Made by a program: the position numbers and the translations under genes. Shown one piece after another: positions 1,986 to 53,397 of a DNA stretch of 64,000 nt. The number at the start of each line of letters is the position of its first letter. The first letter of the stretch is position 1. The notes beneath the pieces were generated by a model that worked only from the letters and a program-made list of their open reading frames with translations, did no database searches and was not told the DNA's origin. The DNA is from Octopus vulgaris (taxonomy: Eukaryota), in assembly GCA_951406725.2 (NCBI GenBank), contig OX597826.1:38998001-39062000 (forward strand). Reading direction: 5' to 3'.

Positions 1986-4900
1986 GTAGGCAGAAATCAG
2001 TTTTTAAACAAAGTAATTGTTATAAATTGAATGCTAAGTACAATGTCGAGTTCTTAATGGATCTGGAACTAAATTATGACAATTCATAAGAACACATGCT
2101 TGTGTGAATGTGTGTGTCTATACACACAGTTCTCTACTCTAGCTGTCATTTTGATGTCATCCAGTCTCTTAATCCTTCAGATAACATGCATGCATACATG
2201 TTTTAAATGTTTTTTTTTTTAATAAAAGATTAGGTACAGGTATAGCTTCATAACCATATAATTTTGAGTTCACTCCCACTATGTAACATCTTGGGCAAGT
2301 GTCATCTATAATTCTTTGTGACTAAATGTGGTAGGCAAAAATTGCAGAAGTCATGTGCATTTGTGTACACATGCCCACTCTTTGAGTTTGTTTCTCACCA
2401 CATGACAAATGGTATTGGCATGTTTACATCTCTGTAACCTAGCAGTCTGGCAAAAAGTGATTGCCAATAGTCCAAAAGTTGAAATGAGAATAATAGAATT
2501 ATTCATAATTGTGTGTTGCTGAACATAGCATCAGGTATCATCATTGTCTTGTCTGCTGTTCTTGCTGGCATGCATTGGACCGGCTGGCTGTTCTCACCTG
2601 GCTTTCTATGGCTGGTTACCATAAAATTATTTTTGTTAGCTCTCTAGTTTTTTTTTTAGGTTCAGACATAACCGTATGATAAGTTTACTTCCCAACCTGA
2701 TGGTTGTAGGTTCAGTCCCACAGTATGACACCTTGGACAAGTGTCTTTAACATAAAGGGTTAATCCCTTCAGCTGGCAACTATGTTAGGAAAACTTAATC
2801 TTATTAAATCATCTTTGTCACTCCCTTGGCTTCTAAATGTTTCATGATATTATTCATACTAAGTTATATGTTTCATGTTTATATTGCAGTTTCAATTGCA
2901 TTGTCTCCACTTAATGTATGCATTAACAGGAAATTCTGGCTGTCATGGCTGGTGTCTGCATTTAAAAAAAAAAAATTGTGTGATTTGAAGTTGATGTATT
3001 TGAATGCATCACTTTTCATTGACTTTATTTAGTTTAAAAGTTATCTTCCTATAGCTAAATTGTTTATATGGTCATTAAACTTTAAATGTTGTACTGCAGT
3101 TAAACTTTAATCAAAAATAATTTTTATTTTTGTACATTATTTTTCAGCTTCATTTCATTTTTAGACACAAAAATCCTAAAACTGGAGAAATTACAGTAAG
3201 TAAATTAAATCATTTATATTTAGTTATATTTTTATATCAGAATCTTAATTTACTGTGTTTGTATATATATATATATGAAAGACTACTGCTTCTATTTATA
3301 TTATACCTAGAATAGGTATTGATGCATAATTGCTGATGTGTCTTCTACTACTACCAATATTGCTACTGATGTTCTTTACCAGATTGTTATGACAATAGAG
3401 CACCTAATAAAATGACTTTCACTATTTAGTTGTGCCTCATATTCTGTGATCAAATCTAAGGTCAACTTTATATTTTCACCTTCCTAGATCAAGGAAGTAA
3501 TAGCTTTAGCCTGGCATTTGATTGAATCAGTTTCACTCTTTTTCCCAAATTTTGTATTTTGGGACTCGGTTTTGATACCTGTTTGATATTATTTTGCTTC
3601 TATTGCATTACTGATTCCAATAAGAAAGACAAAATACAAAATGGTGTCACACTTTGTTTTCCCTTATAAATTTTTAGGCCTTCTGTCTATAGAAGAGACA
3701 TTGTTTCTCTTATTCAGTGTATGACCAACACCAAACACCACTTGCATAATGATGACACTTGCTTACAACTATCATGTGATGGCAAAGAATCACAAACACA
3801 TCCATGCACCTACCTTCACAAATACACACACAGGTGTGCACTTATATGACGGGCTTCTTTCAGTTTGTCTTTCAAATCCAGGCCCCAGGTTTTGGTTGGC
3901 TTGGTGCTATAGTGGAAGTCACTTGCCCAAGATGCCATGCAGTGGGGCTAAACTCAAAACCAGGTGGTTGTGAACAAACTTCTTACCACATGGCCAGGAC
4001 TGCACCTATATGATAGTTGCTATTAATAAGCACATGCAGTTATGCATTAGAATACAGGATTTGATTCACACAGTATTTCAGCTGAGTTTGAGACAAGCTT
4101 CACTAGTGTCACTCTGGAATAATCAAAATGAAAGCTGTCACCTGAAATTAAGTGTGGTGGCCTGACATTGAGTTTAATATTGAAAACTGAACAAATAATA
4201 CCTTTGTCAATGTACCAGGAGTTCACTGGCAAATGCTTCTCTACACAAGTGGTAATGGTTAATGGAATTGCCACATTGGGTTCATGTGGCTGATCCATGT
4301 TGTGCAAATGTCAGTCCACTTTGAATGTGCATCTATAATAGTGAACAGGTATTCACTATCACTGTCTGCATAGTCTACATGAAGTTGATGTTTCAGTTCC
4401 ACTTGTCTTTCCCCACTGAGCATTTTTAGGGGCATTATTTGTTTATCACCAGCATGAAGCATCTCATTTCATCCACAATCAGGAGAATCAAAAGTTTCTC
4501 CATGACATCTGCCCAGTTGCATTCATTTCACAATGATGATGTAGTTTCTTGCCTGGAAAAAGTTTGATCATCTGCTTATAATTTTGATACAAGGCAGGCA
4601 TGCATCTTAGGACTATATTAGGTTGCATCATTGGGTGTTTGAGCTGACATCTTTTCCAGTCTGTAATGTACTGAACTTACTTCCAAACATAGCACCTTCA
4701 GATTCTATTCAATTGCAGGCCCACCGTGTTCATTGAATTTTTAATTAAAAAAAATAAATTTTTTTTCATTCTTTTGTCTTTTTACCTCATGCTTAATTTG
4801 ACCACTTAAACAGACTAACCTCCAGCCACCTTGCAGAGGTCAGAAAGACGAAAATAAAAAAAAAAAATATTAAAGTGCCAGGGTAGCAGAATTCTTAGCA

Positions 4901-10900: not shown

Positions 10901-13900
10901 ATAAAGTTTTGATAAAGAAGAAGAATCAGGTTCCCTTTTTGGTGACATGTGTATGAAAGAATATGATATAGAAAGGGATTTGCTATTTTGTTTATTTTAA
11001 TTTCTAAGGATATATTAAGTAAAAAAGACATTTCTAATAATATCTTTACATGACCAATATTTCTAAAGATACCTGTTGTTGCAAAAGCTAGTCTGTACAT
11101 AGATGGTTTTGTAATTTAGCTGTTGTCTTATACTACAGATATGAGATAAATTCATGAATTTTTTTTTTACAAATTTTAACCTCGTCTGATCTAAAGGTCG
11201 TTTTATACATGGGAATATACGGTACTTTATCTTATAAACCCCTGAAATGATAACAAACATATTCAACATAAAGAGCCAGAGGAAATACCACAAACCATTT
11301 TGTCTGTTGCACTGAAATTTCTGGTGTTCTACTATCCTAATAAATGTTGTTATTATTCCATTTTGGTGAGCAACGTCTTTGTACAAGGTTGAAATATATC
11401 AAATTCTGAACTGTATCATTGAGTAGAAAGATAGGTAACACAATCTCTCCATTCCTTGTCAGTTTGTTTCTCTCTAAATGCAGTGATAAGTATTAGATGT
11501 GGCATTCAAAGTCTCTTTGCTTTAGTGATATTTGTTTTATTATAGACCTCCAGTTAATCCAGCTAAAGAAATTGAAGATAATAAGGATCAGAAACCTGGT
11601 GACTGGGATGATAGAGAGAAGTAAGTAACTGGACTTTTTTGAAACCCTATTTCTGTTGAAATACACAACCTTTCTTTGAATTAATTTAGAAAATAATCAT
11701 GATGTTTAGAACATAAATTAACATGAAATTAGGAAAGGTTTCACTTTGAATAAAAAGTTTGTATTGTGGAACCAGGGGGCAGTCTCTGATGAGTTGCTAT
11801 CAAAAGGGTTAAAAAAGGAATATTCTGTAATAGATTCCATTTTTGTGTCAATAATTTGTTAATAGTTGGCTCATGGGGCATGCTGCAATAACTATATCTT
11901 GTGTGGCTTGTTTCTTGAATGTTTTCACAACCTGAATCATTACATTCATGTTCAATGAAATATTTACTTTATTTTTCAGAATAGCTGATCCTGATGCAGT
12001 GAAACCTGATGACTGGTAAAATTTTATTACATTTTCTTACAATCTTATCTTGATTTAACAAAATCACTTATGTAAAATTTTTCCTCTTACCTCTAAACTC
12101 ATTTGTTCTTTATCCATATCTACTCAATGTGATCTTTAATGTAATACTGCCCCCACCCATCCCAATATTCTCTACCGAAAAATCAGTTGTGTATTATCTA
12201 TTACTCTGAAGTATGTTAATCAGTAATTTCAATCCTAATGTATTAAATTTTTAGCATTTAAAATGAGTAAATGAAGTAAGTGTGGTGAAATATTTGTTGA
12301 AATGATGACATAGTACCCCACCCTCCCTTGTCTTTTGTTTTGTACATGCTCTCTCTTTGATCAGTCCATGGTCCATTTCATGACCTCATATTGCCCCCCC
12401 CCCCCTATCTGTTCTCTTGTCAGCTCTGCCTATTCTGTGTGATCTCTTCTGATCAATATCGTTATTCACTGTCATGCCACCAGTAACTAAGACGAAGATA
12501 CTTACCTCCTTTCTCCATATTTGAATCGCCTATATCTTGGTATCTCTCCTTCCTTTTTCTTCCTAAATCATGATACTCAAGTAGGCAGGGATTGCACTCT
12601 GGCAACCTTTATCCACCCACTCACCCACCCCCTCGTTCTCCTGTCACCATGTTCTCTTGGATGTTACCTTGAGGACATGCATTAGTCCCTCATCATCATT
12701 TTATCTCTCCTCCATGCACCACTATACTCACCCACCCATATATATTATACAATGACACTACTTCCCCTCATACTGAGTCCTCCCTGCTGGGCTTATCCCT
12801 ATATAGTAGCTAGAGTAAAATCTCAGAGAAAGTTCAGGGAGCTGCTACCACTGCTGACAACAAAGATCTAAGAGCAGATTTTATGATGCTTGTGTTAGAA
12901 CTACAAAGCTGCATGGTAGTGAAACATGGGCCTTGGATGTAGAGCACTTGAGAAGACTACAGAGAAATGAAGTGAGCATACTCTATTGGATGTGCAATGT
13001 GAGTGTGCATGAAATAATTAGTATGAAGGTGCTGAATGAAAAACTGGGTATTGAAGGAATCAGATCTACTGTACAAGAAAGAAGTCATGTGATGCATAAT
13101 GCATATGGATGAGGACAACTGTATAAAAATGTGTTGATCACTAAATGTAGATGGAACTTATGGAAGATGGAGATGCTGGAAGACATGGGATGAAGTGGTG
13201 AAGGCTGACCCCGTTCCCTGAACATAGTGGAGGAGATGACAAAGGACTAGGATCTCTGGTGATTTGAAGTTCTTGAAAAGACCCACCCTCCTCAGTGAAA
13301 CTCCGCTCTATATGTGGTACGTTTTGTGCTCTCCACACATTACTGTGATTCATCCTCACCCTTACATATACTATGCTTGCTTAACATGTCATTTCCCTCT
13401 TTTGTTCTCGCTCTGGCAACTGTGTCACCTTTACTACTCCTGTCGTTTGCATCCACCTTTCAACCCTACCTATTTTGACAGTCTATCTTCCCATCCCCTC
13501 ATTCTCCTTCCTATACAATCTTGCAAATCACCTACTCATTTCTACTCACCTTGTGCCTTGTAGGGCCATTTACACACCTCATTGCCGTTATCTATCCCTA
13601 GCAGCTCCTATTGATCATTTTTTCTTTCTCTGCCCCATCCCTTCCTCAGTAATTCTTTCATCCCTAAGCATGAAGCTCAACCTACCCTCCCACCTCTCAA
13701 GGTTTATAGTCCTCTGAGCTGAATATATGTATAACTGAATACACACACATTCACACATGCATTTGAGAATAAAATTATTTCCTTATCTGTATCAAAGCTT
13801 CGAAAGCAAACTTCGTTTGTTGAATTTCAGCGTAAGTTGAATTTAACATGCGATAGCATCTTATAAAGCTAGATTTATACATCCTGAATTTGCAGAAGAA

Positions 13901-14116
13901 TTTATCGTTGGGGCAGTTTAGGTTACTGGTAAAGCACTTGACGCATAATAACAGGGATGTGAGTTTGAGTCTCATGGCTGGCTGCCAACATTTTTCTTCA
14001 AAATATGGATAGTTTATCCTGTTCATGCTATTTCCTTATCTGTATCTTTCAAGACATCTCAAACACTTCTAAAGCAAACTTTGTTGACACTTTCAACATA
14101 AGTTGAATTTAATATA

Positions 14117-14167
<51 letters not shown>

Positions 14168-17100
14168 GCACACACGCACATATATATATATATACACACA
14201 CACACACACGCACGCACACACATATATATATATATATACACATACATACACACACATACACACAACCATCATCATTTCAACATACCTTTACATGCTTGCA
14301 TAGGTGAGGTGCAATTTGTTTAGGTGGATTGCTGCTTGCCCTTCCTGTCACCAACGTTCATGTGATCCCAATAAGGTAATATTTCCCCATGATTTTACAG
14401 AATATTGTAAGTGGAGTACACTACTTGCATGATGCTGACACTTGTTTGCAACTATTATGTGATATGGCAGGGAGGTAATAACACATACACGTGTGTGTGT
14501 GTATACATACATGTGCATGTATGTTACTACCCCTCTTGCCAAGATAGTGCATATGGTGAGTCTTTCAGTTTCTGCCTACCAGATCTACTCATAAGACTCA
14601 AGGCTGTAGTAAAAGACACTTGCCCAAGGTACCACACAGTGGGATTGAACCCAGAACCATATTGTTGGTGGAGAAAATTTCTTACCACATAACCACACCT
14701 GCACCTAGACACACACACATGTAAAACTTTTTGGCATGAAAATGAATTTGAATAAAAGCTTATATTACAAGTTACACTTGGAAAAAGCATGTGTGAAACC
14801 AAAGATATTAGTAGGAGATGAAGTATTAAAAGTGGTGAAATCCTTATCTTGGAAGAATGTGGTCATGTACCAGTTTGGAGAAAAAGATCTTACACAGAAT
14901 GAAGAAGGCTTTGACAGCTTTTGGAAATCTGGAAAGCAGGCTTTGATCACATGGGAACAGATTAAGCTCAAAGATATCCTCTTATAAAATTAGTGTGCTC
15001 TCAGCTTTATTGTATGTCTGTGAAACTTGAATGATCTACTAACACCAATTTAAGATGATCAAATGGTTTCACCAATGCTGTTTGAGACATATTCAGTTTG
15101 AAGTGGGCCACACATATCCTGGACACCAAAGTTCTAGAGAAGGCTCAAATGACTGGCATTGAAGCCACCATCATTTGGTGTGTTTTAAGGTGGGGTGAAC
15201 ATCTTGTTCAGCAGCGTAATATGAAAATTCCAAAGTAAGAGGAAAGCCTCACAACCCAGACAGCAGTAAAAGACCTTAAGATGAACTTGAGAATTAAGAA
15301 TCTGGAAAAGCAATCATTGGTGGTGTAGCATTATTTGAGAGTAAAAGAATTCAGCATGCATCTTTTGTTGTAGTTTGACTTCTATTTTGTTATCTTCATA
15401 TATATATTCAGTAGTTTGAGGGTGTATCCATCAGATATGATATAATTAAGATGACTAAATATGTTGTGTGTGACATGTATGCCTCTTTCAATTAAACTAG
15501 TTTCTTTTTCTACCTGCTGTTGGTAGAATGACAAGAATAGTCAAATACATTTTTGTGTAGAAAAGATCAATTTCAAAGATAGTTTCAGTTGATTCTTTTT
15601 ATTCTATGGATGTATACAATTACAATTGCATGTAAATACATCAGGTGTAATCTTCCTTTGTCAATGAAAAGAAACTGGAAACATATTGTATAGTAGAATG
15701 TTATTTCTAGTTTTTGTCTAAAAGTTTATCTGTCAAGAAGTGACAATTCTATTGCTGATCTAGTCCATTGAAACTACGCTATAGAAAGAATTAGGTTTAT
15801 GACTTAAGATCATTTTAGAGAAGTATAACATCTCATATCATTAATGCAAGAACGTCAAAATACAACAAGGAATGTATATGAGTTTGGGTGACATAGTTTC
15901 CAGAAGGCATGCTATCCACTAACTAAATTTGGAAAATGCCCTGGATTTTATAACTTCTCATGGATGTTTCTAGGAGTGTTAGAAAATATCATTTAGAATA
16001 ATTCTGGCTAAAACCTAGAATGATTTTGGCTGAAATCTTTTCAACCAGTGAGAGAACTTGTTTTAAATTAGTTTAGTTTATATTTACCTATAAGCCGCCG
16101 AAATAAACAGCTTTTACTACACATCATACAAAACAGCAGTTCAGAAGATGAAGTAAGCAACATGAAGAGCTGTAAGCAAAAGTAGTCAGTATGTGGAAGA
16201 ATCTGTCTTTGTGTTGCTAGTTTCAAGAGCCACGTAAGAGAGCATGATAATATGAAGCAGCTGCAGTCTTCCCAGCAACTTAGTTTTAAATGCAGTATGT
16301 GTAGCAAAGTGATGAACTCAAAAGCTGGCATGAAGAATTATTTATCAAGTCAAGTAAAGAAAGAGGCTCAAGAAGTTCCAAGATATCATATTCAAGGACT
16401 AGTTGACAACTAATATATTCCTAACCCCCCCCCCCCCCATTACCACTCCCAGCTTCTCTCCTAAAATGTGAGCAATCATGTAGCTTCACAGCAAGAAACA
16501 TGCTGTGCTCTAACCCTTTTCTCTCCTGCTTTATCCCCCTTCGCTTCTTATTCTCTTACTATAAAGTTGCTTCCTATTCTTGTAGTTTGAAAGAGATATG
16601 GTGATATGTCCAAGTGAACAGGAAGTTTTGTGTACATGTGTATACACACATACATACACTTGTACATGAGTTATTTGTGTCTCCTTGTCTTGACACTGCA
16701 TGATAGTTGTAAGCAAGTGTTACCATCATAAATTGGTGTCCTTCTTTCCAATCCTTTGTGAAAACATGTCTGGCCATGAGGAAATATTTCCTCATGTAAA
16801 AACAGGTGAGTGTTTGTAATAGAAAGGGCATTTAATTGTAGAAAATTTGCCTCAAAAGATAATTCTGTCCAGCTCAAGCAAACATAATATAAAGTGGACA
16901 CCAGAACAATTTTATATATAATTTGTGTATCTAACTTCAGGGATGAAGAACAGCCAGAAAAAATTACTGATGAGGATGCTGTGAAGCCTTCTGGTTGGCT
17001 TGATGAAGAACCAGAAGATATTCCAGACCCTGATGCTGAAAAACCAGCTGACTGGTATGTTAACTTTGAAATTTAGAAGTATGTATGAGGCGTAACATTT

Positions 17101-20100
17101 GTTGTTGGCAAAGTTTGGGCTTGTTTACATAGACCTGCCGTTACTGGCATTCAGTATAATATGACTTGAACAATAGAAGTGAGGTGGGTGCATAGTAGAT
17201 TGTAAAGGAATGAGACAGGTTGTGGATGATGCGATGTGTACTTGGTTGGAGTGATGTTACAGGCAAGGGTTGAAGAAGAGTGAGAATAATCCAAGTATAT
17301 GAAACAGTGCTGTTCGGACAGCATAAGAAAGAAACTACTTGGTTATTATCTAACTGAAAGTGACATTGTGCAGATGGAAAATTATTACCTTGAAAGCATG
17401 ATGGCTGTCTGTTACATTGTGGTATTTGTCCTTCACTGAATTAAACATGCCATGAACCAATGGCTGGTCCAGTGGAAACCGTTTACAAATGCTATTGTTC
17501 AATTGTTTTTTGAAAACAAATGGTTGCTCATACAGGCACTATTGATATATCCTTTATCATCATCATCATTTAGCATCCGTTTTCCATGCTAGCATGGGTT
17601 GGACGGTTCAACTGGGGTCTGTGAAGCCGGAAGGCTGCATCAGGCCCAGTCAGATCTGGCAGTGTTTATAGTTACAGTAATTTGGTAAAAAAAATTTTTC
17701 ATTTATATTTTAAGGTTTTTTCAAATGACAAGATGTCAAACATATTTTAATAATTTAAAAATTACCTAAAATCAATTAACTGAAGTTTTCTCTCTGAATT
17801 TGCAGATGTTTGTATTTCTACTTTTGTATGAATTTAACTTCTGGCCAGGTTATTTTTACTTGTCTTTCTCTTGATCATATAGGGATGATGATATGGATGG
17901 AGAATGGGAAGCTCCCTTGATCTGTAAGTAATTTCTCATTTCTGTAATTATTTTTACAAGATATTATTTATTTTTTTTGTTTGAAATGTGTTAAATTGTA
18001 GTAATGTTTTAAGAAAATAAATTTCACAACTAAATAACATAATTTTGTTGACCTACACAAAGAACACATTTTTCATAATATATGCTATAACTTTTTTCAT
18101 TTTTATAAATTTAGCTAACCCAAAATGTGCAGATGCACCTGGTTGTGGTGAATGGAAACCAGGTATGATTGATAATCCTAAGTACAAGGGCAAATGGAGG
18201 CCGCCAATGATTGACAACCCAAATTACCAGGTAATTTTTTTTCTTATTGATAAGAAAGGGAAGATGCTGTATCCATGATTTTTTAAAGTATCTTTGAAAA
18301 TTTTGGTATGTGATGGTGGGTGTGAATTATTTAGGAATTTTCTTTGTAGGATTTCTGAAACTTTTGGGAGCTTATGGGTAGAGGAGACAACTCGGGTATT
18401 CACCCTTTTAAGGCTTTTCAGATGATGGGAGTTGGGTAGCGGGCAAAGCAATTCTCTAGTTTCTGTCTGCCCAGAGATTTCTGTGCATACTTGTGATGAT
18501 GGATTCCACTAAAGGCAATTAAGAGCCAAATCTGGGCAAAAACAAAAGAAAATGTAACTGGATGAGTTAGCTATTCTGGTATTAGGGTTAATTTTTGTCT
18601 TCCATACCACTTTGTTGGTCAAATAATTACCTGTTATATACTAGGGTTAAATTCAGTTAACCATCTAAATATTCTCTTCTATAAAAATTGACCTCCAGGT
18701 GAATTAGTAAACAGAAAGTAATATAGCTGATGTAATAGAAACTGATATTAAAATGAATAATAAACTTATACTAATTCTGCCTGTTTTTTTTTTGATGGTC
18801 TGATCTGAGAATGACTTTTGTTCCTAGCAAATCTAAAGAATGTTTTCTATCCTTTATTGTCTCTATTCATTATCAGTAGAGACATTGTCCCCTCTTCTCT
18901 ATGTATCTCTGTTTATTCTTTTCTTTTCTTTCCACTCAACTGAGTGGGTAGAAGTGGTCAGAAAGGGCTATTAGATGATAGAAAGGAGAATGAGGGAGAG
19001 AGATGATAGTATAAAGGTTGTTGGTAAGGAGATTAAATAGGAACATGGCAAAGAGAGTGGTAGGAGAGAGCCAGTGCAAGAGAGTGATAGAAGGGAAATT
19101 AATGGAAAATAGTGATAGACTGCTTCATGATGGATGAGGTAACAATGAGAAGAAAGTGTAAAGAGAAAAAAGAAAATAATGGTATGCAATAGTGACGGGG
19201 GTATTGGAAGCGATATTGAATTGAGACAAATCCAGTATGTTGCAATTGTCATTTCACAAGTGGCAGGATGAGAGAAAGCGATAGTGCTAGGAGCCAATAG
19301 ACAGAAAAAAAACCCCACTTATAAATATATTGAATATCCCAGCCTTCATCACTTGTTATTTTTGATGGTTGTACTGGTGGGCAAGACTTCTCTAGTACAG
19401 CATTTATCTCTTCATGAATTCTGCCTCTTGAGATCAGGTTTTGCTACATATTAGGTTTTCTGCGGGTTTCCTTTCCACAGATTCCATTTACTTTGAACAC
19501 TTGCTCCTTTCTATAGCCTGTGTTCTCCCTACATGTCACATAGCCATATCAGTACTATCTTGATCCCTCTTGTTTCCTATTTTTCTCTCAGTTCATTTGT
19601 GCTCTGCTGTATGTATACTAGCATTACAGATCCACCTTAGCATTCTTACATCATCACTTTCTTGCTTTTCCATATCTTCATTCAAGGCTCACATCTTGTT
19701 ACTATGCAGCATCCCACTTCATACACAAGTATCATATAATTTGCACTTTACTGAGAACAAAAGTAATAGATTTTAATGAATTTTTTTCTACCTTGTTCTG
19801 ATACTGGCTGCTGTGCTTTCTCAACCCTACTTCCCTTTTCACTACTGATTTATTCACACACATAACAAATGTTATCAACTACTTCTAAGTAGTCTTCTAA
19901 GCATTTGAAAGAATCTATTTGACTTGTAGTTTATTACTAACTCTTATACATCTCCCTTATACAAAATCTACCTTTTCTGTCAGCCTGCTTGTGCTTCCCC
20001 TACAGCTCTTGTGTGCACTTAATTTACACTGTGTACACCGTAAAGAATTTCTACTTTATCTCTACATATTGAACATAGTCACTTTTCCAATGGCTGAAGA

Positions 20101-23100
20101 ATCCTGTTTTCATTCCTGCTAATTAAAACTTTTAGTCGTTGGGCAATTAATAGATGTTATCCAAATTTTCCTCTAATCACACTCTACTATCTTATGTATG
20201 CATAAACCAACAAGCAAGATCTTCAGTGGTTAATTCTTCCTCAAATCACATCCTCATGGTTGTAGGGCTGAGCAGCTGTTGTTTGGCGAATGCTGAACGT
20301 TGAACATTTGACTCGAGGAGTTGGCAGTTGTCTTTCATTGTGTGTTATTGCCCGCGTTCAGGGTGGGAGTGGTTTGGTTTTGGGGCTGGACCTGCCGCCC
20401 CCTTTTATTTTAACTGAGATTGTTTTAATTGAGCATCACTGAGTGCCTCTGTTAATATATCATCATCACACATACATAAATGTATATATGTGCATAAATA
20501 TGTTTTATATATATACCTTTCTCTCTCTCTTTAGGGTATATGGAAACCTAGAATGATTCCAAATCCTGATTATTTTGAAGACTTGAATCCTTATCAAATG
20601 ATACCTATTGTAAGTGGAGTATTTAATTTTGTTCAAAAGTAAAAAAATAAACATTAACCCACCCCTTCTTTCTGCATCAGTGGTTCTTAAATTGTATACT
20701 GTAAAACACTGTAAGTATGCCTGGATTTAAAAAAAAATATATAATTTAGGAATTTAGAAAATTCATATTAATGTCTTTGAAAACATAAGATGCTTATATA
20801 GCAGTTGGGAAGTTTGCTTCCTCAGCAACATAGTTTTGGGTCTGTCTTTGCATAACACAATGGAGAAATTTCTTCTACACTAGTTTCTAGCCTAACATTG
20901 TTTTGTGAGTAAATTAGGCAGACAGTGATTTCCATGTGTACGAATGATTACATTCTGCATTCACATATAAATAGTTACGGAGATGTACTCGCATAGCAAG
21001 TAATTTGATCTGAGATCGTGTGCAGCACGGACTTTATCAGTGAACAGGTCGCGGATTTTAGCGACGAAAATATTTTGACAAATTAAACTTAAATGTTGGA
21101 GTGAATCGAACGGCTTTTGTGTGTTTCTTAAATGGCTTATAAACACCTTCCACGCTGCAATTGTTTTCATATAAATAGTGCTGAGCACAAATGGTGAATT
21201 TTGTTGACAGTTCTTTGACATAAGACATAAGAAATTTAAAAAATCCCTTTAATGCCAAGAAGGGGATCTAATTATAAAGCAATACTTTAGTAGTATATAC
21301 TCATCAAACCCATGCAAGCATGGAAAAAAAAGCAAGAGAAATGAACAAATTTGAATGATAGAAAACCACTGCTCTATGTACTCACTGGAAATGCAAAATT
21401 ACTTCAAAAATTGATATCCTCTTATTTGACCCCCCCCCCATCAGATTTGATGGAGATTCATTATGCTTTTACTTAATTTTGAAAATTTCTTTTTCAGGGT
21501 GCTGTTGGATTAGAGTTATGGTCTATGACTGATTCTATCATGTTTGATAACATTCTTATAACAGACAACCTTGCAACAACTACGAAATGGACTGAAGATA
21601 CGTTTGCACTAAAACAAGCTCAGGAAAAATCTTCCATTTCTGGTGTAAGTTGGATAAGTCTTCTTACTGATAAAAATCTGTTTGCATCTACAGCTACTTT
21701 AAATGTTTCTGTTAGTTCATCCAAAACTAAATTTGTGGTAAGGCAGTGGTTGACAGAATTGTTAGTACATTGGGCAAAACTGCCTTCATGTTTTTTCAAA
21801 TCCTACACTGAAATCAGATTTGCCTCTCATTCTTCTGGATTAGATTAAATTACATACCAGACAAGTACTGAGATTGTTTTAATTGACTCTACCTTCCTCT
21901 TTAATATGTATCATTCCAATGTTAGAAGTCTGTAGTTATGAATTTTAAATGCTTTATATTAAGGCAACGTTTTACATCATCATCTTCATTTAGCATCTGC
22001 TTTCCATACTGGCAAGGGTTAGGCAGTTTGACTGAAACTGGTAAGCTGTAGAGCTACATCAGGTTCCCATCTGATTTGGCATGGTTTCTACAGCTGGACG
22101 CCCTTCCCAATGCCAACCACTCCAAGCATGTAATGGGTGCTTTTTATGTGCTGTTGTATTTTCGGGTTCTTATTTTGTTGTCTTCATATATATTCTGTGG
22201 TTGATGATGTAATCCCCCAGATATATATTTAAGTTGACCTAATATGTTGTGAGTGACATATATGTGTCTTTCATTTAAAACTGATTTCTTTTATTACTTC
22301 CTGTTGGTAGAATGACAAGAATCGTCAAATAAATTTTTGTGGAGAAGTGTTAAAAACTCAATTTCAAAGATATTTCCATTTGGTTCTCGTTTATTTTACC
22401 ATGTTTAATTATAATTGAATATAAATACATGCTAGCATAGAAAGCGGACGCTAAACGATGATGATGATGATAATCTCCCTTCGTCAATAAACACGTGAGA
22501 AAACTTCGTATAGCAGGAAGGTCTACATTTTTGTCTAAGAGTTTATCTACCACAAAGACATAACAAGAATTAAATTACCTTTCTATTTCATTGAAACTAA
22601 ATTAAAGAAAGCATTAGATTTATGACTTAAGGTCATTATGGAGGAAAGCAACGTCTTGTATCATTATAGCAGGAACATTAAAATACAAGACATGTATGTG
22701 AGAGTGAGTAACAGCTTCCAGAAGCCACGCTATCCACTAACTAAAATCGGAAAAAATTCAGGCTTTTATAACTTTCCGTGGAAGTTTCTAGAAACATTCT
22801 GAAATATCTTTTAGAATAATTCTGGCTAAAACTTAGAATGATTTCAGCTGAAATTTTTTCAACCAGTGAGAGAACTTGTTTTAGATTAGTTTAAAACAAA
22901 GCTTCCAAAATAAACAGCTTTGACTATGATTTCATTTGTCTTGATGAGTCTTCTCAAGCATGGCATATCGCTAAAGGTGTCAGTCACTTATCATTGCATC
23001 CATGAGGCCCAATGTTCAAAGGGTGCTTTTTATGTGTCACTGGCACTGTTGCCAGTTATGCTACACTAGCATTGGTCATGTATGATTTCACTTGACTTGT

Positions 23101-24894
23101 CATGATAGTTTTTTCTGACTCTTAGTATCACAGTATCAACCAGGCCATCAGATGTTGTTATACTCCACTGGTCACAATGCACTTCCAGATCCCAATTGCT
23201 TTATCAGATCATCTCCCTATTGTTGTGAAGACATTCCAAGTGACCTTTTGTGATCTTTCGGCTATTACTCAACAACTGCCCAAGTCCACCTGTTGTCTGT
23301 GAACCTTGTGACATGTATGGCCCAGCAGAACTAGTGCTTTTGGTACTCTGTGATCACATCATTCACTCACTCCATTTTTGAAGTATCTCATTTCAAATGT
23401 GCTCCCTTAATGATATTCCTAACATGGATCTTTCCATGGCCCTTTGCATTATTGCCAGTTGATGTTCTATTGTCTTCGTTGTGGCCCATGTCTCAATATC
23501 ATATTAGAGCACAAGTAGGACAATGCTTCTGAAGTATCTGGCACATATGGCAGTTGCTAGCTTTGTTTTGAGCCCATCTTTTATTGAGTTAAATACCTGA
23601 AAAAACTAAATGAGTTTGTCTTCAAGGAAAAAGTGAGGCAAAATAGCTCAAAATGAAAGTTTCTTTTGTTTAGCTTAAAAATGGAACCTATTAATCCTGA
23701 GCTCTAAGGATCAGGCATTTTTGTGATTTCATCATCACCATAGTCCCACTGCATGGTACCTTGGGCAAGTGTCTTATACTATAGCCTTGTGTTTGTCCCC
23801 CTACCACCATCGCTTGACAACCAATGTTGGTGTGTTTACATCCCTGTAACTTAGCAGCTCGGCAAAAGAAACCAGTAGAATAAGTACTAGGCTTACAAAG
23901 AATAAGTCCTGGGGGTAATTTGTTCAACATGGCCAAAGCCAAATGACAAACAAATAAAAGAATAGTTTTAACGTCTATTTATCAGCTCTTATCAATATTT
24001 ATGATTATCAGTTATTTATGTTCCTGCAAATAATGACAAGTGATACAAAGCTGTGATATATAAGGGTGCACTGGGTAAATCATCGCCATTTTATATTTTA
24101 AATTTCGTGCATGTGCCTTGTTTTTGGTTTTGTTGACTACACAGTATAGTAGGGTCAGTTGGACACCATCTGTGAGAAAAATAGTACCATGACACAATTC
24201 ATTCTGCCTGAAATTTGGAAATGACATACTGTACTGCTTGGCATTTGTGTCGGAAGGTCCAATACAAACATTTGAAAGTATTTGGGAGTCAATCTGAGGA
24301 GCAAGTGTGATAAAAAATCAAACATCCAGTCAACATCATGGTGTTTGGGGTGGTCTCTGGTGATGGTGACGTTATGCCACCATTCATCTTCCCACACGGC
24401 CTCAGTCTCAACATGGAGACTTACATCAAGTGTCTGGAAGAGGTAGTGCTGCCCTGGGTCAAGAGGGTGGCTGCTGGAAGACCCTCTGTCTGGCAGCAGG
24501 ACTCTGCACCCTGTCACACAAGCAGAACCCAGTCATGGTTTTCAAATAATTTCTGTGACCATATCACCCCTAACATCTGACCACCTAACTCCCCACACTG
24601 CAACTCCCTTGATTATTATGTGTGAGGTGCAGTTTTGTTAAAACTCTTTGTAACACCAAAGGCAGGGATTATGGCAGCATTCACCAACTTACAAAAGAGA
24701 TTGTCCAGAAGAGTTACAAGTGATTCCGAAGTTGTCTGGAGGCCATGATTTGAAGCCAATGGTGATTTTATTGAATAAATTTACTCTTTAGTATTTGAAG
24801 ATATTTTTATGTAACTTTAGTAAATGTATCTGTTAAAATGAGATGTCATTGTTGTTTTTATTTTCATGTAATTTACTTGACAGTTTATTCACTG

Positions 24895-24963
<69 letters not shown>

Positions 24964-27900
24964 AATAGGTGAATGAATTATCCTATGTTTATCGTCAGCA
25001 TGGAAAATTCGTTTAACCGAAACCTGGGTAGCAAATTCACGTCAGAAACACGGTTGAAGCGACCTGTCCATATATATATATATATATTGATACAGTAACA
25101 ATATTCTCAAGGTTTTTTGTGGCTAATCAGTAACTGTAATTACATTTAGCTATAAAATAAGACAAAAAATATTATTTTATTGCTTTTGATTTTAATATTG
25201 CAATTGAATGGCATGTTAGTAGAGCTCTCACCTGCCAGCAGAAGGTTCATCAGCTCATACCCTGACAATGATATTGTGCAGTGTTTATACAATTATAAAA
25301 TGTCAAGACCATTCAATTGTATATAGGTATCATGTGCAGGTTTAATTTACTGCTATAAATCCTGTGGGCTGTGTGTATCAGACGTGTTTGGTTAGCTTGA
25401 AGTATTAAGCTAATATTTTTCCATGGATTTTGAGAAGTTCAAAATAATCAAAATTTCCTTGTGACCTTTTTGTTAAAACCACAACCTTGAATCACTGTCT
25501 AAATAATGAAAAATTATATTCAGTGGTTCCCCAAGAACTCAATGGGTTATGGAGTATTACTTTTTACTTCTCTAATTTATGTCAACTTTCTTCAATTAAA
25601 TGCTTCTCTGTTTCAGAAAAGTGTAGTGCAAGCTGTTATTGATGTGACTAATGAACGGCCTTGGCTATGGGCCGTATTCATTGTTGTTGTTTTGCTTCCT
25701 ATTGTACTTGTTATTGCCTATTGCTGTGTAGGCAGCTCAGCAAAGGTAAGCTTTCCCTTTGAAAATAGCTGGTTTGCATTGCATGCAGCTGCATACCCAG
25801 TTTTTTCTTTATCTTCTAAAATACTAAAGCCTTTGTGTGTACATGAAAAATGTGTGTGGCTCTGTTTAAAGCCCCAGTTTTTCTGTGCAATATAACTTAC
25901 TGCTCTTGGAGAATATGTCTGGATATTAAACCCATTTCTGGACACTGCTTAAATATTTGTGACTAACGCCTCCCTTCCCCAATGGCAAGATATTTCCCTT
26001 TCAGCATTCTACTTATCACTGTCTCACTGATTCATGTTTTGTCACATTTAAAAAAAAAGATTTGGTTTTGTTTTCTGTATACAGGAAAGTAACTATTTCA
26101 TGATGTTGATGAGTAAACTTTCATTTGCTGCTGAAGACAATCCCTGGTTAATTGTTACATATGGAATGATTATTGTCATTCCTATCATACTACTGTCTCT
26201 CTACATTATCTCTAGAGGAGGGAATCAAGAGGTAGTTTATATGTTGTGGCTGCATTGTCCAGTATTTTCTATACTAGTTGCAGTAGTTGCCCAAGTATAG
26301 CCTTCACATTGCTTTTTACTCCTATTTGCCTCTCTCCGATATAATTGTTCATTCAAAACCTGCAGTTTAAGTACCCCACTGTTAGATGTAGTCATTATAT
26401 TGTTTTTGTGCACTGGTTAAGAATTTTGTTAATGTTAAGAATTTTGCAACTGTGATCCAACTTCATGGCAACTTAGGGCAGATGTCTTCTACTATAGCTG
26501 TAGGTTGATTAATATCTTGTCAGTGCTGGGAAACTGTCATTATGTGTATCTTTCTATACTGGTCAGAGAAACTGGTGCTTTACAAATGAAGACCTTTGAA
26601 ATATTTGTTCTACATCAAGTTTATAGATACACCTTTACTACTTATTCTTTCAGAAATAGAGTGAGCAGTGGTTGGCCTGTCAAAAGCTTGTGGCTACCAA
26701 TGCTCCAGTTGTGATATATAAAACAATATGTACAAGTACTGCAAAGTAGTAGTGAACTCTATCTTGGGCTGAGTTTGTGGTGAAACTTAAATTACCAGCT
26801 GACATATAACACCATGTACATGCTATTTTCAGTGCCTATCAAGCTAGTCCTCCTCAGATAAGTTGGAAGGATGTGTCTTGGTTTGTTTACTCCATTATGG
26901 CAAAGTTTCTGTTATTGTATGCCCTTTCTATACAATTCAGAGTATACTTATTATGATACTAATACTACAGAGGTTACTTTGTTCCCTGCAAGACTAAAAA
27001 GTACTCTTGGCTTTACATTCAATGCAAACATGACCAAGAATGTGAATAGGAAAAGTGTGATAATCAAGAGGGTGAAAGAAGCAAGATTATAACTATCATG
27101 GTGCAAACAGGGTGGTAGGGGGAAGTGATAGGGAGACTAACAACTATAGCACTAAATTTTCCCAGTTTTCAAAATAGTTTACACCCTCAAATCTTGTCCT
27201 CTCCCAGCACATTTCATGTACACATCACTGGCACATTGTAATCTGTTCGTGTTTTCCTTTACCAGCAATGATATTGTACATATATATGTGAGTGTTGTGT
27301 GAAAGAGAAATGCTATAACAAAACTTTGCACTAAATATTTACCTAGTATCTACTATTTTGAATGTATATCAGATGTAATGTAAACATTATTAGGGTACTG
27401 TCATAAATTCTGTGAGTTGTAAATGTTTTGTTGAGGATCCTTATAAATAATGAACACAGTCATTTTCATGAATTTTAATGTTAAATGATTTTAGTCTATT
27501 AATAAAAATAACCCAAAATAGTCTGATGAATGAATAAAGAATTTGTTTCCTGAAAGAATTTCTAAACTAATCCCAATTTAAGAGACTATAAAAACAGCTG
27601 CTGTTTTATCATATTTATTAAGTTGGTTTCAGTTTTGTTGTTTAACCCTTTAGTGTTTAAACTGGCCAAATCCGGCCCAATATATTCTACATATTTTATA
27701 TTCAAACTGGCCATATTTAGCCTCTCACACCTAACCTACATTGACATTCTAAAAATAAACAATCACATCATTGAAACCTCAAAGCTATAAGGTAATGCAT
27801 GATTAATTCAAAACAATTTAAATAAAAAAGCATTACATTTAACAAAGTAATCTGAACACTAAAGGGTTAAAGAAGTTATATATTTAAAGATTTTCTTTGA

Positions 27901-28361
27901 TGTTAAATGGAGTTGAAAGAAATATAAATTAGAACAGTTAAAACAGAATGGTGTTTGATATGCATATATATTATTATCTCAAAGAAGAAACTTCTGATCA
28001 GTATTGTTGATAGGTATTGGAAAAAAGAAAACCTGTGTTTGAGTATGAAGGACATAATTGAATATGTATGTGGGCGTGGCTAAGTTGTCACTTGCTTCTC
28101 TTCTGTTTACTACAGGGCATCTCTAGCTTTTGATGTTATATGTTTAACAGTTTATATAGAGAAGTTTGCTTCTAATATTTATTCTCACATTGCTTCAAGG
28201 ATGAAACTGCGGAGAGGAAGAAAACCGATGCGCCATCACCTGATGACAAAGTTAGCGATGATTCTGGCAAGGCGAAAGGTGATTCTGAGGAGGTGAAAGA
28301 AGATTCTGAGAAGAAGAAAGAAGATTCTGATAAACCTGCAGATGAAGGTAATCAAGAAGAA

Positions 28362-28395
<34 letters not shown>

Positions 28396-29867
28396 GGGAT
28401 AATGCTTCAGGTTCTGAAGAAAAAGTGGAGCCGGTTGATGGTAGACCTAAAAAACCTTTGAAGGGGGATCTTGAAGTTGAAAAAGTAAGTTGAAAATGCT
28501 GTTACAGAATTCTCTCAGCACTTATTCAAATAATGTTTTTTCCAGTACACTTCATATCAATATAGCTCTTGCATGATCAGTGAACTCTTATAATACCTAT
28601 TTTTAAGTGATAATTAAGTAAACTTCATGGTTTCTCTTAATGACTTAGCTATTTTCATTTTTTAGATAAGTGAATGATTAGGCCGTTTGGAGAAAGCACT
28701 TGATTTTACATTACTTTAACTGATGTTTTAGAAAGCTCAACTTAAATTCTCAACTGATAGAAATAACATTTTTTGTGTCTCATTAACTTTTTAATGCCTT
28801 AGGAACTGGAGTTCAGCACCATCTCCATAAAAACTTGTGATTTATATATGACAATCCTAATGCTCTCATCTGTATTTTCAAATTTGCTTTTTAAAATTCA
28901 TGACTTCATGGTGTTTTTCACATTTTAGTAACTAGCAAGAACACATGTTGCTATGACAGTATATTTTACACACCTTCACATACAAAAAAACTGTGACCTC
29001 AGTTATAAGTCTAATTGCTGCCAATGTACTAAAACTTGTGTCAGCTCAGTTTGTGTGGATATTATTATTATTTGTAAGTGAATGATTGATCATAGCACCT
29101 TGCTAAGAAATAATTCACTTGTTTGTGTGTTATTTATATCTCCTTGTGATTGTTTCTCTTCAATAACTGTAGTCCTTGATAAGACAAAGAATATTGAAAT
29201 ATCTTTTCACAGAAAACAGATGCTGCTGAAAGTGCAGATGATGATGAAACACCCAGGTAAATGGAAGATTTCTTTAATAACAGTAATTAAGGGATTGAAT
29301 AATTGTAATTAAATGATTGTTGCATTTCTTGTGACTAGAATATATAAGGGGGATGTTAACAACCTCAATCTTGCTGATCTCAAAAGCATTGGACATTGCT
29401 CCTTTATTCAGACCTAACAAAACAAGCAACAAATATTTAATCATACGATGATATACTAAATGTTCCTTATTCATTTTGGATATTACCTAGACAATGATGA
29501 CTTTCAGTGAAGCTACAGTATTGGAAGGAGGTCAGTTAGTCTGCCTTTTTTCAACAATGCTCCACACATAGTAGTCCATGGAATTAAAATTTGTTTCAAC
29601 TCATGAATTCACAAAAAGAATTGTGCTAACCAGATACAAAAATAGTTTTCTATATATTTGGATTATATTAACATTTATTTTTCTAATAGAATACTCTTTA
29701 CTTGTTTGTCATTTGACTGTGGCCATGCTAGACTGGAGCACCACCTTTAGACGAGCAAATTGACCCCAAGGCTTATTCTTTGTAAGCCTAGTACTTATTC
29801 TACCGGTTTCTTTTGCGGAACCGCTAAGTTACTGGGGTGTAAACACACTAGCGTGTGTGTGTGTGTG

Positions 29868-29920: not shown

Positions 29921-31492
29921 TCATATATACAACAGGCTTCTTTCAGTTTCTGTCTACCGAATCCACTCACAAGGCTTTGGTCAGCCCGAAGCTATAGTAG
30001 AAGACACTTTCCCAAGGTGCCACGCAGTGGGACTGAACTTGGAACCATGTGGTTTGTAAGCAAGCTACTTACCACACGGCCACTCCTATAAGAGAGATTT
30101 TTTTTGCCTGTTTTTTTTTTTTTTTTTGGAAGCACTCCGTCAGTTACGACGATGAGGGTTCCGGTTGATCCGAATCAACGGAACAGTCTGCTCGTGAAAT
30201 TAACGTGTAAGTGGCTGAGCACTCCACAGACACGTGCACCCTTAACGTAGTTCTCGGGGATATTCAGCGTGACACAGAGAGTGACAAGGCCGGCCCCTTG
30301 AAATACAGGTACAACAGAAACAGGAAGTAAGAGTGAGAGAAAGTTGTGGTGAAAGAGTACAGCAGGGATTACCACCATCCCCTGCCAGAGCCTCGTGGAG
30401 CTTTTAGGTGTTTTCGCTCAATAAACACTCACAACGCCCGGTCTGGGAATCGAAACCGCGATCCTATGACCGCGAGTCCGCTGCCCTAACCACTGGGCCA
30501 TTGCGCCTCCACTTTTTGCCTGTAAATGTGTATTGAAAAGGAACTGATTCCATGGTCACCACAGGCATGTAGAACATGCATACATATATTATTACATTCA
30601 GCTTTGTTTTATTTCTCAATAGTATTATATACTATTGAGTATCAAAAATAGTGTACATTTACAAGATGCACTAGAATAGTGTCTGTGACCATGGTATAAA
30701 TGTTTGATATTTTTTAGCACTTTACATGTAATTACAAGAGTGTACAAAAGTAAATGAAGCATTTTAAGTTTGCCTTTTCCATGCTAATGTAGATGAGATG
30801 AGTCACCTCTGATGCTGGATGATCTCAAACTACTTGATAGCCTGGGCTGGGTACATTTTATGTCACTAGCACTAGTTAGTAGTAGGTTTAACAAGTCACC
30901 TCTACCTTGTGTTAGTGCTTTCTGTTACAACTTGCCTGTATGTGTCTCTTCCAGTGGGTGGGAGTGCATGGTAGAGCTAGGGAAGTTACATTGGTGGTTT
31001 GAAGTGGTTGATAGTAAAGCTCTCCATTGTGCAAAGCAAAAGAGTTATTTGTTAAAGGAACTTATTATCAACTGGCAGCTGAGCCCAGTTTGTTCAAGTT
31101 CAGTGGTGGGAGGTTGGAGAGATGATATATTGACTAGTTATGGTCGTCATTGATGTTTGAAGCTTTAGAAAATATCAATCATAATGAGATATGGGAGTGT
31201 ATAAATTTTATAAATAATGCTGAAATATATTATAATGATAATTTTTTTATCTAAATGAAGAATCAGTTCTCATTCTGAATGAATGGCTACAATGTGTGTT
31301 TTAATCGCTATCATGACTACTTTTAATAGTTTCTTCTGAAACTTTTTGTTAATGGACATTTAGACTCTATTAACATTCCAGTTTTAATGAAATGAAAATT
31401 TTCTTAACAAAATTTCAATATTCTCCAATTGTTTTTGTTTCTTTTTCTCTTTTATTTTCTTCTGTAGAAGACGGCGTTCAAGAAAAGATTAA
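1917..31492 (+). CDS. CANX: Calnexin gene span (5'-partial). 15 coding exons per isoform in this window, counting one of the two alternative TM exons
   Basis: Spliced translation gives [25 protein letters not shown]-domain repeats (IxDPxAxKPxDWD, GxWxxPxIxNPxY), GLELWSM, PWLW-TM-CC, an acidic tail and C-terminal [10 protein letters not shown]. All introns are GT-AG with matching phases. Confidence 0.97.
3148..3195 (+). CDS. CANX: Calnexin exon: [16 protein letters not shown]
   Basis: tttcag / gtaagt, conserved [10 protein letters not shown], phase 0-0. Confidence 0.95.
4050..4730 (-). mobile_element. Degenerate Ty3/gypsy integrase remnant
   Basis: LHVDYA...[12 protein letters not shown] integrase-core motif in ORF 4259..4462, frameshifted. 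Confidence 0.6.
5098..5173 (+). CDS. CANX: Calnexin exon: [25 protein letters not shown]
   Basis: ttctag / gtaagt, EKHAK and [10 protein letters not shown] motifs, phase 0-1. Confidence 0.95.
5500..6490 (+). mobile_element. RTE-clade LINE 3' fragment: ORF end, tandem-repeat 3' UTR and (ATG)n tail
   Basis: YGSETWA, IRWMCNV and GRPRKTW motifs with stops. Confidence 0.8.
5990..6345 (+). repeat. About 60-bp minisatellite, about 5-6 degenerate units, in the RTE 3' UTR
   Basis: Recurring gatgccag..cctgactggc..ctgtgccagtggcacgtaaaaagcaccatcc. Confidence 0.8.
7480..8635 (-). mobile_element. Degenerate RTE-clade LINE reverse-transcriptase fragment
   Basis: Minus-strand remnants [26 protein letters not shown] and a YADD-like motif. 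Confidence 0.7.
10134..10212 (+). CDS. CANX: Calnexin exon: (I)[25 protein letters not shown]
   Basis: ttacag / gtaagt, NPDNxF and GNLLxDM motifs, phase 1-2. Confidence 0.95.
10400..11224 (-). mobile_element. pogo-type DNA transposon remnant (N-terminal HTH region and left TIR)
   Basis: ORF 10447..10728 ([14 protein letters not shown]...ARTFGI...EWRK...LENDVAEWV). Minus-strand terminus TACCGTATATTCCCATGTATAAAACGAC. Confidence 0.7.
11546..11620 (+). CDS. CANX: Calnexin exon: (T)[24 protein letters not shown]
   Basis: ttatag / gtaagt, first P-domain repeat, phase 2-2. Confidence 0.95.
11980..12015 (+). CDS. CANX: Calnexin 36-nt exon: (K)[11 protein letters not shown](W)
   Basis: tttcag / gtaaaa, type-1 P-repeat, phase 2-2. 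Confidence 0.93.
12880..13290 (+). mobile_element. RTE LINE 3' ORF fragment
   Basis: HGSETWAL and LYWMCNVSV, homologous to 5500-5880. Confidence 0.7.
14112..14265. repeat. Compound (TG)/(TA)/(CA) microsatellite
   Basis: Directly visible. Confidence 0.95.
16941..17054 (+). CDS. CANX: Calnexin exon: [37 protein letters not shown](W)
   Basis: cttcag / gtatgt, P-domain repeats, phase 2-2. Confidence 0.96.
17883..17923 (+). CDS. CANX: Calnexin exon: [13 protein letters not shown]
   Basis: atatag / gtaagt, P-domain tip DMDGEWEAP, phase 2-1. Confidence 0.95.
18115..18230 (+). CDS. CANX: Calnexin exon: (S)[38 protein letters not shown]
   Basis: atttag / gtaatt, CxxAPGCG disulfide loop and type-2 repeats, phase 1-0. 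Confidence 0.96.
19420..20120 (-). mobile_element. Degenerate RTE LINE fragment
   Basis: Similar to 7480-8100 (same strand) and reverse-similar to 5500-5880. Confidence 0.55.
20535..20609 (+). CDS. CANX: Calnexin exon: [25 protein letters not shown]
   Basis: ctttag / gtaagt, GxWKPRxIPNPDxFED, phase 0-0. Confidence 0.96.
21498..21644 (+). CDS. CANX: Calnexin exon: [23 protein letters not shown]...QEKSSISG
   Basis: tttcag / gtaagt, GLELWSM and FDN motifs, phase 0-0. Confidence 0.96.
24063..24900 (+). mobile_element. Tc1/mariner (maT/DD37D-like) transposon, internally deleted
   Basis: [16 protein letters not shown] and [13 protein letters not shown] (D-D spacing 36 in this copy). Imperfect TIRs agggtgcactgggtaaat / tttattcactgcactct. 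Confidence 0.8.
24897..24960. repeat. (CT)n(AT)n microsatellite
   Basis: Directly visible. Confidence 0.95.
25617..25745 (+). CDS. CANX: Calnexin TM exon A (canonical): [43 protein letters not shown]
   Basis: tttcag / gtaagc, 129 nt, phase 0-0, ERPWLW plus hydrophobic helix plus juxtamembrane CC. Confidence 0.95.
26085..26231 (+). CDS. CANX: Calnexin TM exon B (paralogous, putative alternative): [49 protein letters not shown]
   Basis: ttttctgtatacag acceptor, gag|gtagtt donor, 147 nt open, phase 0-0. AAExxPWL, mid-helix Pro and TM helix align with exon A. Confidence 0.8.
27646..27866. mobile_element. piggyBac-type MITE
   Basis: 12-bp TIR CCCTTTAGTGTT / AACACTAAAGGG flanked by TTAA on both sides (27642-27645, 27867-27870). 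Confidence 0.85.
28200..28484 (+). CDS. CANX: Calnexin cytosolic-tail exon: [16 protein letters not shown]...(poly-E)...GDLEVEK
   Basis: ttcaag / gtaagt, KKTDAPxPD motif of calnexins, acidic tract, phase 0-0. Confidence 0.93.
29213..29256 (+). CDS. CANX: Calnexin exon: [14 protein letters not shown](R)
   Basis: tcacag / gtaaat, phase 0-2, joins the tail exon to the terminal exon in frame. Confidence 0.85.
29693..30090 (-). mobile_element. tRNA-derived SINE family A (octopus-type) with internal microsatellite
   Basis: Head aggagtggccgtgtggtaagtagcttgct...gttccaagttcagtccc (A/B box-like), many copies in the window. Confidence 0.85.
30111..30512 (-). mobile_element. Young tRNA-derived SINE family B with poly(A) tail and TSD tttttgcctg
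   Basis: A box tggcccagtgg, B box ggtttcgattcc, TSD 30101-30110 and 30513-30522, near-identical to 60689-61066. Confidence 0.9.
31468..31492 (+). CDS. CANX: Calnexin terminal coding exon: (R)RRRSRKD*
   Basis: Long pyrimidine tract plus ctgtag. The basic C-terminus resembles the vertebrate SPRNRKPRRE ER-retention end. TAA at 31490-31492. Confidence 0.9.
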
Positions 31493-34612: not shown

Positions 34613-35877
34613 CGAGGAGGTACCCATAAGTAACTGGAAACATTCTGTGTGGGACAAAGCCCATTATGGTTCAGACTTCTGCCACTAGAAGCCAGATGCA
34701 ACCCTCAGCATCAGTCTGCTGACTGGCATCATTGCTTAGAGTCCAATGTGGTGCATCTTTGTTTTGCAGTATTTCTCCCCTGGTCATCAATTTTTGTTAT
34801 GGCTGAAATGAATAAACAGCATGCTTTCATGAAATTCTGTTTTCTGCTTGGGAAAACGGTGGCTGAAACAGTTGTCATGCCTCAAACAGCTTACAAAGAT
34901 GCTATCATGAGCAAAACGCAAGTTTACGAGTGGTTTTCATGCTTTAGTCGTTCAGAGCGACTGTTGAGCTCCTGAACGAATGAAAGCATCACGATAATTC
35001 ATGAACTGATCTTGGAGGACCATTACTGAACAATTAATGAATTTGTTGATATGACTGGTGTATCCTGGAGCTCTTGCCACTGAATTTTGAGTGAAGAATT
35101 GCAAATCAAAAAAGGTGCAGTGAAATTTGTGCTTTGCTTATTCACAGAAGATCAAAGCAGTCATGACTGACTGTGTGTCATGAACTGAAAGAACAGTTAG
35201 GAGTTGATCCAGACCCACTGGTCATCACTGGTGATGAAAGCTGGTGCTATGGCTACAATCCGGAAACAAAGCGGCAATGAAGTCAATGGAAGCATTCGAT
35301 GTCACCATGTCCCAAAAAAGCACATCAAGTGAAGTCCAATGTCAAGATGATGCTGATTTGTTTCATCGATGTGAAAGGAATTGTCCACACAGAATTTATT
35401 CCTCCTGTTCAAACTGTTAATTAGACATTTTACTTAGCAGTTCTGAAGCATTTGCAAGACATCGTGAGACAAAAACGCCCCGACATGTGGCAAAGTGGAG
35501 AGCGATGGTTTCATCATGACAATGTACCTGTGCACACCACCTTGAGTGTGAGACAGTTTTTGACCAAAAATTGCATGACTCTTCTCCATTCACCTGATCT
35601 TGCTCATTGTGATTTTTTTTTGTTTCCCCAAATGAAAAAAGTCCTTAAAGGAAAATGTTTTGCAGATGTGGAAGAGTTTGAAGAAAAAAAAAAACGACGG
35701 AGGGGTTAAAAACATTACTTCACAAGAGTTCCAGGACTACTTTGAACAATGGGAAACACATCCGGACCAACACATTGCTTCAGATGGAGAATACTTTGAA
35801 GTCAGTAGAAGTGCAAACGTGTAAAACAAAGTGAATAAAATAATGCAAAATTCCGATTTCTGTTGGATACCCTCTTG
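34613..35877 (+). mobile_element. Full-length but decayed mariner element (about 1.27 kb, irritans-like)
   Basis: TA on both sides, imperfect TIRs cgaggaggtacccataagtaactggaa / ttccgatttctgttggataccctcttg, motifs KFCFLLGK, TGDESWCYGY, HHDN, SPDLAHCDFFLFP, many stops. Confidence 0.9.

Positions 35878-53364: not shown

Positions 53365-53397
<33 letters not shown>

Follow-up and report, generated by a model that had tools for sequence, protein, structure and literature searches.

Tandem alternative membrane-anchor exons in octopus calnexin: an old, apparently undescribed pair with a rare cysteine-free member

Does an octopus choose between two membrane anchors for its calnexin, and could that choice decide whether the protein can be palmitoylated? 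The usual picture of calnexin is of a protein with one anchor, its location and stability being adjusted by reversible palmitoylation. The window analysed here, a 64,000-nucleotide stretch of the Octopus vulgaris genome (contig OX597826.1, positions 38,998,001 to 39,062,000), carries a calnexin gene in which the first-pass annotation had proposed two tandem, paralogous transmembrane exons, A and B, used as mutually exclusive alternatives. Exon B was seen there as an old duplicate that is kept under selection and encodes a Cys-free, non-palmitoylatable calnexin. Positions below are those of the window, and all calnexin features lie on its plus strand.

The gene is identified through P0016, an Octopus sinensis calnexin that matches PF00262 at 547 bits (luminal calreticulin-family lectin plus P domain) and whose exons map onto the window by tblastn. 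The gene start lies outside the window, upstream. Ten short upstream exons (1893–20609) encode the lectin and P domain; their ends are approximate (1893–1988, 3142–3195, 5098–5172, 10133–10213, 11547–11621, 11978–12016, 16942–17055, 17884–17925, 18111–18239 and 20535–20609). They are followed by the last luminal exon (21498–21644, 147 nt, phase 0-0), which is joined to either A or B. The cytosolic tail begins in phase 0 with an acidic exon at 28200–28484, continues through a second tail exon placed by exon mapping (29213–29256) and ends in a last coding exon (31468–31492) with a basic, ER-retention-type end and a stop that agree with the end of P0016. Whether read from A or from B into the tail, the gene specifies a single helix with a mid-helix Pro, an acidic tail and a basic C-terminal motif.

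Exons A (25617–25745; 129 nt, 43 residues) and B (26085–26231; 147 nt, 49 residues) are as first described: both have AG/GT ends, are phase 0-0 and are free of stops. They are separated by a 339-nt intron (25746–26084) and flanked by exons that end (21644) and start (28200) in phase 0. As adjacent homologous exons of one phase and similar length, they fit a tandem-duplicated pair. Exon A is identical to O. sinensis X1 and ends in Tyr-Cys-Cys. Exon B has a 19-residue hydrophobic core (mean hydropathy 2.5) and, like the cytosolic tail exons, contains no Cys, whereas juxtamembrane Cys is present in A. A gap-free, Pro-anchored alignment places PWL, the mid-helix Pro and the Tyr at +7 of the two exons opposite one another, although identity around the helix is only 7/40; the ungapped BLOSUM score of 53 is reached by none of 2000 shuffles. 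The proposal that B retains AAE and a Tyr known from vertebrates is also borne out, with AAE and the Tyr at −7 common to B, fish calnexins and the B exons of other molluscs and absent from A. On four calnexin transmembrane profiles, exon B outscores every one of 5000 segment-wise shuffles, and it is single-copy genome-wide (one match at 3.8e-25; the sole other match, at E 2.8, contains stops).

Both exons are spliced. Seven of 24 listed runs were examined, and exon B words occur in 20 of the listed runs. Runs X22–X24 are raw RNA reads from a related species (organism C), and four contig runs, whose status as RNA is a guess, were chosen for holding B. All four junctions singled out for checking (21644>25617, 25745>28200, 21644>26085 and 26231>28200) are present. 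The joint from A to 28200 is carried by 93, 90 and 95 raw reads in X22, X23 and X24, and X22 holds 3 raw reads for 21644>26085 versus 104 for 21644>25617; the final 30 letters of the last luminal exon are found as loose read ends preceding both 25617 and 26085. A contig of run X1 joins 21644 to 26085 and then continues past the B donor into intronic sequence, and a contig of run X4 begins exactly at 26085 and likewise reads on through the donor. The only direct 26231>28200 joint is in an X9 contig, in which B is followed by 12 letters of the tail exon, at a depth of 3.7 versus 506. Depth on B in X22 stops in the bin that holds the donor and is 0 further on. In X1 and X4, B read-through is about as deep as retention of the upstream intron (5.5 vs 4.1 and 15.9 vs 18.9, respectively).

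As far as these data go, exons A and B are spliced one at a time, B replacing A, with A in most transcripts. A joint from A to B is absent from four runs and from a further listing of joints that is complete but for six, at low B depth, and the inner bins of the A–B intron have zero depth in all seven runs. The B share is ~2.8% in X22, 2% in X4, 0.6–1% in X1 and 0.7% in X9, hence ~0.5–3% where it is seen; B was not seen in X23, X24 or X12 (3/7 runs), the last of which has no B contig despite its index listing. The earlier expectation that B is a spliced alternative to A stands on these data, but it had overlooked that B is rare in bulk RNA, that its transcripts often run through the donor and that B is already in RefSeq. 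The intron after B also contains a repeat element (27640–27870) on which many reads of other transcriptomic origin pile up.

RefSeq records exon B as a last exon extending 22 codons past the donor in XP_036364191.1 (O. sinensis) and XP_052828346.1 (O. bimaculoides), and P0232, a 66-residue protein, is a fourth octopod-like copy with an identical stop position. In the window this read-through comprises 22 hydrophobic codons and then TAG (26232–26300), and the resulting form fails the anchor-plus-tail layout of calnexin. Two further O. sinensis models (RefSeq isoforms X2 and X4) read through other donors, which suggests that read-through models may come from intron-retaining RNA. One of them, P0003 (isoform X2), has a Cys-Cys ending that is not conserved in the window, where a stop occurs two codons in (28485–28493). 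A protein word-index search with exon B alone, weak by design, gave no match. A profile search returned P0232 as a true octopod match, P0244 as a tandem A+B calnexin fragment and 23 other matches, and the four of these that were examined are unrelated repeat proteins.

Comparison with other animals supports the view of B as an old duplicate, because the A/B pair occurs in bivalves, gastropods and a nemertean, with A preceding B. A-type and B-type anchors are found together in 9/10 lophotrochozoan clusters (oysters, mussel, four gastropod groups and the nemertean Lineus); the Pomacea cluster has B only. In genomic contig L005, A is followed by a 480-nt intron and then B, in phase 0, and tandem gene models likewise give the order A then B in molluscs. 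RefSeq isoform pairs from Haliotis asinina (XP_067663080/81), Babylonia (XP_076446748/49) and Lineus (XP_064636288/90) have the same order and phase as octopus. In these bivalve, gastropod and Lineus pairs, B ends in Cys-x-Cys-Pro and joins the tail, whereas octopod B is rare and Cys-free, and its only annotation is as a terminal exon formed by read-through. B-type calnexin is recorded as full length in P0102 (Pomacea), P0128 (Mytilus californianus) and a contig (L006, including the tail), so B may be a major form in other lophotrochozoans. Two Ostrea edulis RefSeq models (P0048, X2; P0147, X1) contain both anchor exons in frame, which, if real, would place the tail in the ER lumen. A correspondence of B to calmegin was rejected: P0034 and P0051, calmegin-like by our own reading of the sequences, reach 71.7 with the profile of fish calnexins versus 35.3 with that of B.

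Position and profile suggest that octopod B is orthologous to mollusc B. On the non-cephalopod B profile, window B reaches 25.6 bits, versus 7.1 on A, 15.0 on fish and 4.7 and −6.8 on two arthropod profiles, and it shares B-diagnostic residues at −17, −7, +5, +11 and +13, with an A-like Tyr at +7. A simple tree of 80 rows places octopod B inside B with a bootstrap of 81; in a mixture-model tree (53 of 82 rows) its position is not resolved, with B rows nearest. Its stem branch is 1.5–2.1 changes per site. Mean identity outside cephalopods is similar for B (0.73) and A (0.70), but window A shares 66% identity with non-cephalopod A and window B only 33% with non-cephalopod B.

The suggestion that B was long kept in a Cys-free state is not supported in that form. 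All 14 distinct non-cephalopod B segments have juxtamembrane Cys (two residues in 13/14, one in 1/14), and Cys retention outside octopods points to Cys loss as a derived octopod trait. The A/B pair would have arisen once, before molluscs and nemerteans split, and octopod B would descend from an ancestral Cys-x-Cys-Pro B that changed rapidly and lost both Cys residues, while its helix length, kink Pro and reading frame appear to have been kept.

In three other octopod sequences, all of them open, B shows 1, 4 and 2 residue changes relative to the window, most of them conservative; the read-through part differs by 2, 1 and 6. Relative to organism C, about 1/147 nucleotides differ in B (a count based on three reads plus an index share of 10/11 words), compared with 3/129 in A and 12/161 in the upstream intron (B vs intron, Fisher P 0.003). 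The single B difference is A>G and could reflect editing instead of a genomic change.

We slightly favour the reading that octopod B provides a selected calnexin isoform, minor or restricted to certain cells, that is not acylated; low use in bulk RNA may mask a tissue or cell type in which B is used heavily. The rarity of B, read-through of its donor and a B-to-tail joint seen in one contig all count against it, and the distance of octopod B from the conserved B type (0.33 vs 0.73 identity) also fits relaxed selection. A less probable reading, to which we nevertheless give appreciable weight, is that B is fading or unproductive in octopods, included at noise level with the next intron mostly retained, which would lead to a premature stop and RNA decay; Cys loss would then reflect relaxed selection, or the exon would merely trim calnexin output. 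Low inclusion throughout, the runs without B, read-through in X1 and X4 and the long stem branch agree with this, as do a B donor that matches the U1 consensus at 6/9 positions versus 7/9 for A and the absence of a B form among the 2 + 9 members of two squid-like clusters and the 2 members from Argonauta, which have A only. It is harder to reconcile with the intact frame, splice sites, hydrophobic core and Pro register after about two-thirds of the residues changed, with nucleotide conservation of B above that of the intron, and with the existence of B-to-tail splicing.

Alternatively, B could act mainly as an alternative last exon that yields a tail-less calnexin extended beyond the donor by 22 hydrophobic residues, with a possible second membrane helix. 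This appears improbable, although the one stop shared by XP_036364191.1, XP_052828346.1 and P0232, the hydropathy of the extension (mean 2.2, the highest among the donors tested), the X1 and X4 contigs and AATAAA motifs at 27501 and 27533, in the intron after B, speak for it. Passage of O. sinensis isoforms X2 and X4 through other donors, with the X2 ending lost in the window, indicates intron-retaining RNA instead; the P0232 extension changes faster than B (6/22 vs 2/44), B joins the tail in other lophotrochozoans and the contigs of run X4 continue toward 28200. That B is a chance hydrophobic stretch of intron or a dead pseudo-exon has almost no probability left. T-rich introns often encode hydrophobic residues and A/B identity is low, but the acceptor is used exactly in X22, X1 and X4 and the donor exactly in X9, and homologues in position and sequence occur across molluscs and in the nemertean; the junction data refute it.

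For the favoured reading of B as a selected isoform, what matters is the protein made when B is joined to the tail. Human calnexin and octopus form A share a luminal lectin domain, a kinked helix with a mid-helix Pro and a Cys pair 8–9 residues later, and both species have acidic tails with a basic end. Acylation of human calnexin at Cys502/503 by DHHC6 favours location at ribosome-translocon complexes and mitochondrial contacts, according to the available part of a review (PMC9913998) in which neither 'splic' nor 'isoform' occurs, and acylation raises stability, with an apparent half-life of ~8 h vs 5 h in the available part of PMC4765739. The human palmitoylation switch is enzymatic and reversible, whereas octopus has an alternative anchor exon. 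Since B-to-tail calnexin has no cytosolic Cys, it could not be acylated there and is likely, judging from its predicted protein, to be a calnexin that cannot be palmitoylated. By analogy with human calnexin it would have a shorter life and associate less with translocons and mitochondrial contacts.

How A and B are kept apart is a separate matter. Inclusion of both exons stays in frame, so frame surveillance cannot act as the exclusion mechanism. Steric exclusion is unlikely: the only branch-point-like motif lies 58 nt before B, ~280 nt from the A donor. With A+B in frame and an intron long enough for both sites, something else must separate them. A 28-nt inverted pair (25867–25894 with 26555–26582; −28.4 kcal/mol), found post hoc, brackets B and would loop it out. 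Its 5' arm is single-copy at E ≤ 1, and its 3' arm falls within a dispersed repeat of low copy number, with four further genome matches to 26558–26615. The helix is matched or beaten in 11/1000 and 7/500 shuffles and in 26/178 natural windows. The 3' arm also pairs, less strongly (−20.6), just after the B donor, and pairing just past a donor is the layout of the downstream docking site described in the available part of PMC8042237. L005 has no comparable helix pair (255/500 shuffles reach its best), the octopus arm shows no significant common motif with L005 (74/500), and, folded locally, neither the A–B intron nor the stretch that follows B outperforms shuffled sequence (z −0.11 and 0.27, respectively). 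Competition from an RNA helix that encloses B and favours A could keep the exons apart, but this is a weak candidate.

The closest known arrangement is the Dscam1 exon 17 cluster of insects, in which each of two alternative exons is the single membrane anchor (PMC8042237, in its available part). The calnexin case differs in that the exons belong to an ER chaperone and that exchanging them gains or loses lipidation sites; other Dscam1 clusters have docking-site/selector pairing, whereas calnexin has only the candidate helix.

A comparable arrangement occurs in arthropods. An alternative anchor is present in 6/9 pancrustacean clusters (Nilaparvata, Macrosteles, Ischnura, Oratosquilla, Palaemon and Daphnia) and was not found among the cluster members of Anabrus, Zootermopsis and a barnacle, or in either of two chordate clusters (tunicate, catfish), absence from cluster members being weak evidence. 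Juxtamembrane Cys is lacking in 8/10 distinct pancrustacean alternative segments and present as one residue in 2/10, and RefSeq pairs (Nilaparvata XP_039295271/74, Daphnia magna, Palaemon, Ischnura) combine a usual Cys-Cys exon with a Cys-poor alternative. In tandem models from Timema and Frankliniella (P0038, P0091) the alternative exon precedes the usual one, the reverse of the mollusc order, and the arthropod exon favours no profile, including that of mollusc B. A common origin of the two receives a bootstrap of 77 in the simple tree and is without resolution in the mixture tree, and both are long branches with opposite exon order. Reversed order and the lack of profile preference make a separate arthropod duplication more likely, and the pancrustacean alternative anchor probably arose independently of mollusc B.

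The calnexin anchor-exon pair is real, old and, it appears, undescribed. The open literature gave no description of alternative calnexin anchor exons, within a scope that excludes closed journals, bioRxiv supplements and fly exon catalogues, and text-file supplements of PMC7954323 and PMC8373072 gave no match for calnexin or for fly gene identifiers. Alternative anchor exons as a kind are already known from Dscam1 exon 17, and calnexin isoforms already exist in automatic annotation. A second anchor exon across molluscs, nemerteans, insects and crustaceans implies that the membrane segment has long been a target of selection. Cys-poor anchors are natural mutants for the role of calnexin acylation in whole animals, and the arthropod version should be easier for genetic testing. 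Taken by itself, the octopus exon is a minor isoform whose weight is uncertain, and the protostome-wide pattern matters more. A broader scenario is possible, though we hold it to be doubtful: the protostome anchor exon would have been duplicated twice, pancrustaceans and octopods would independently have made a Cys-free copy, and splicing would hard-wire a palmitoylated or non-palmitoylated state in each cell type, thereby deciding between service at translocons and ER–mitochondria contacts and a free, short-lived pool. If this is true, splicing in protostomes would fix states that vertebrates set enzymatically.

Elsewhere in the window, exons of an SH2-containing tyrosine kinase gene (PF00017, PF07714) face calnexin from the minus strand (45894–62498). 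Broken frames on the plus strand at 51112–52773 look by eye like a LINE-type reverse transcriptase (the scanned piece has no Pfam match), and mariner/Tc1 transposase-like fragments are visible by eye at 24314–24577, 34634–34972 and 35425–35821 (two scanned pieces have no Pfam match).
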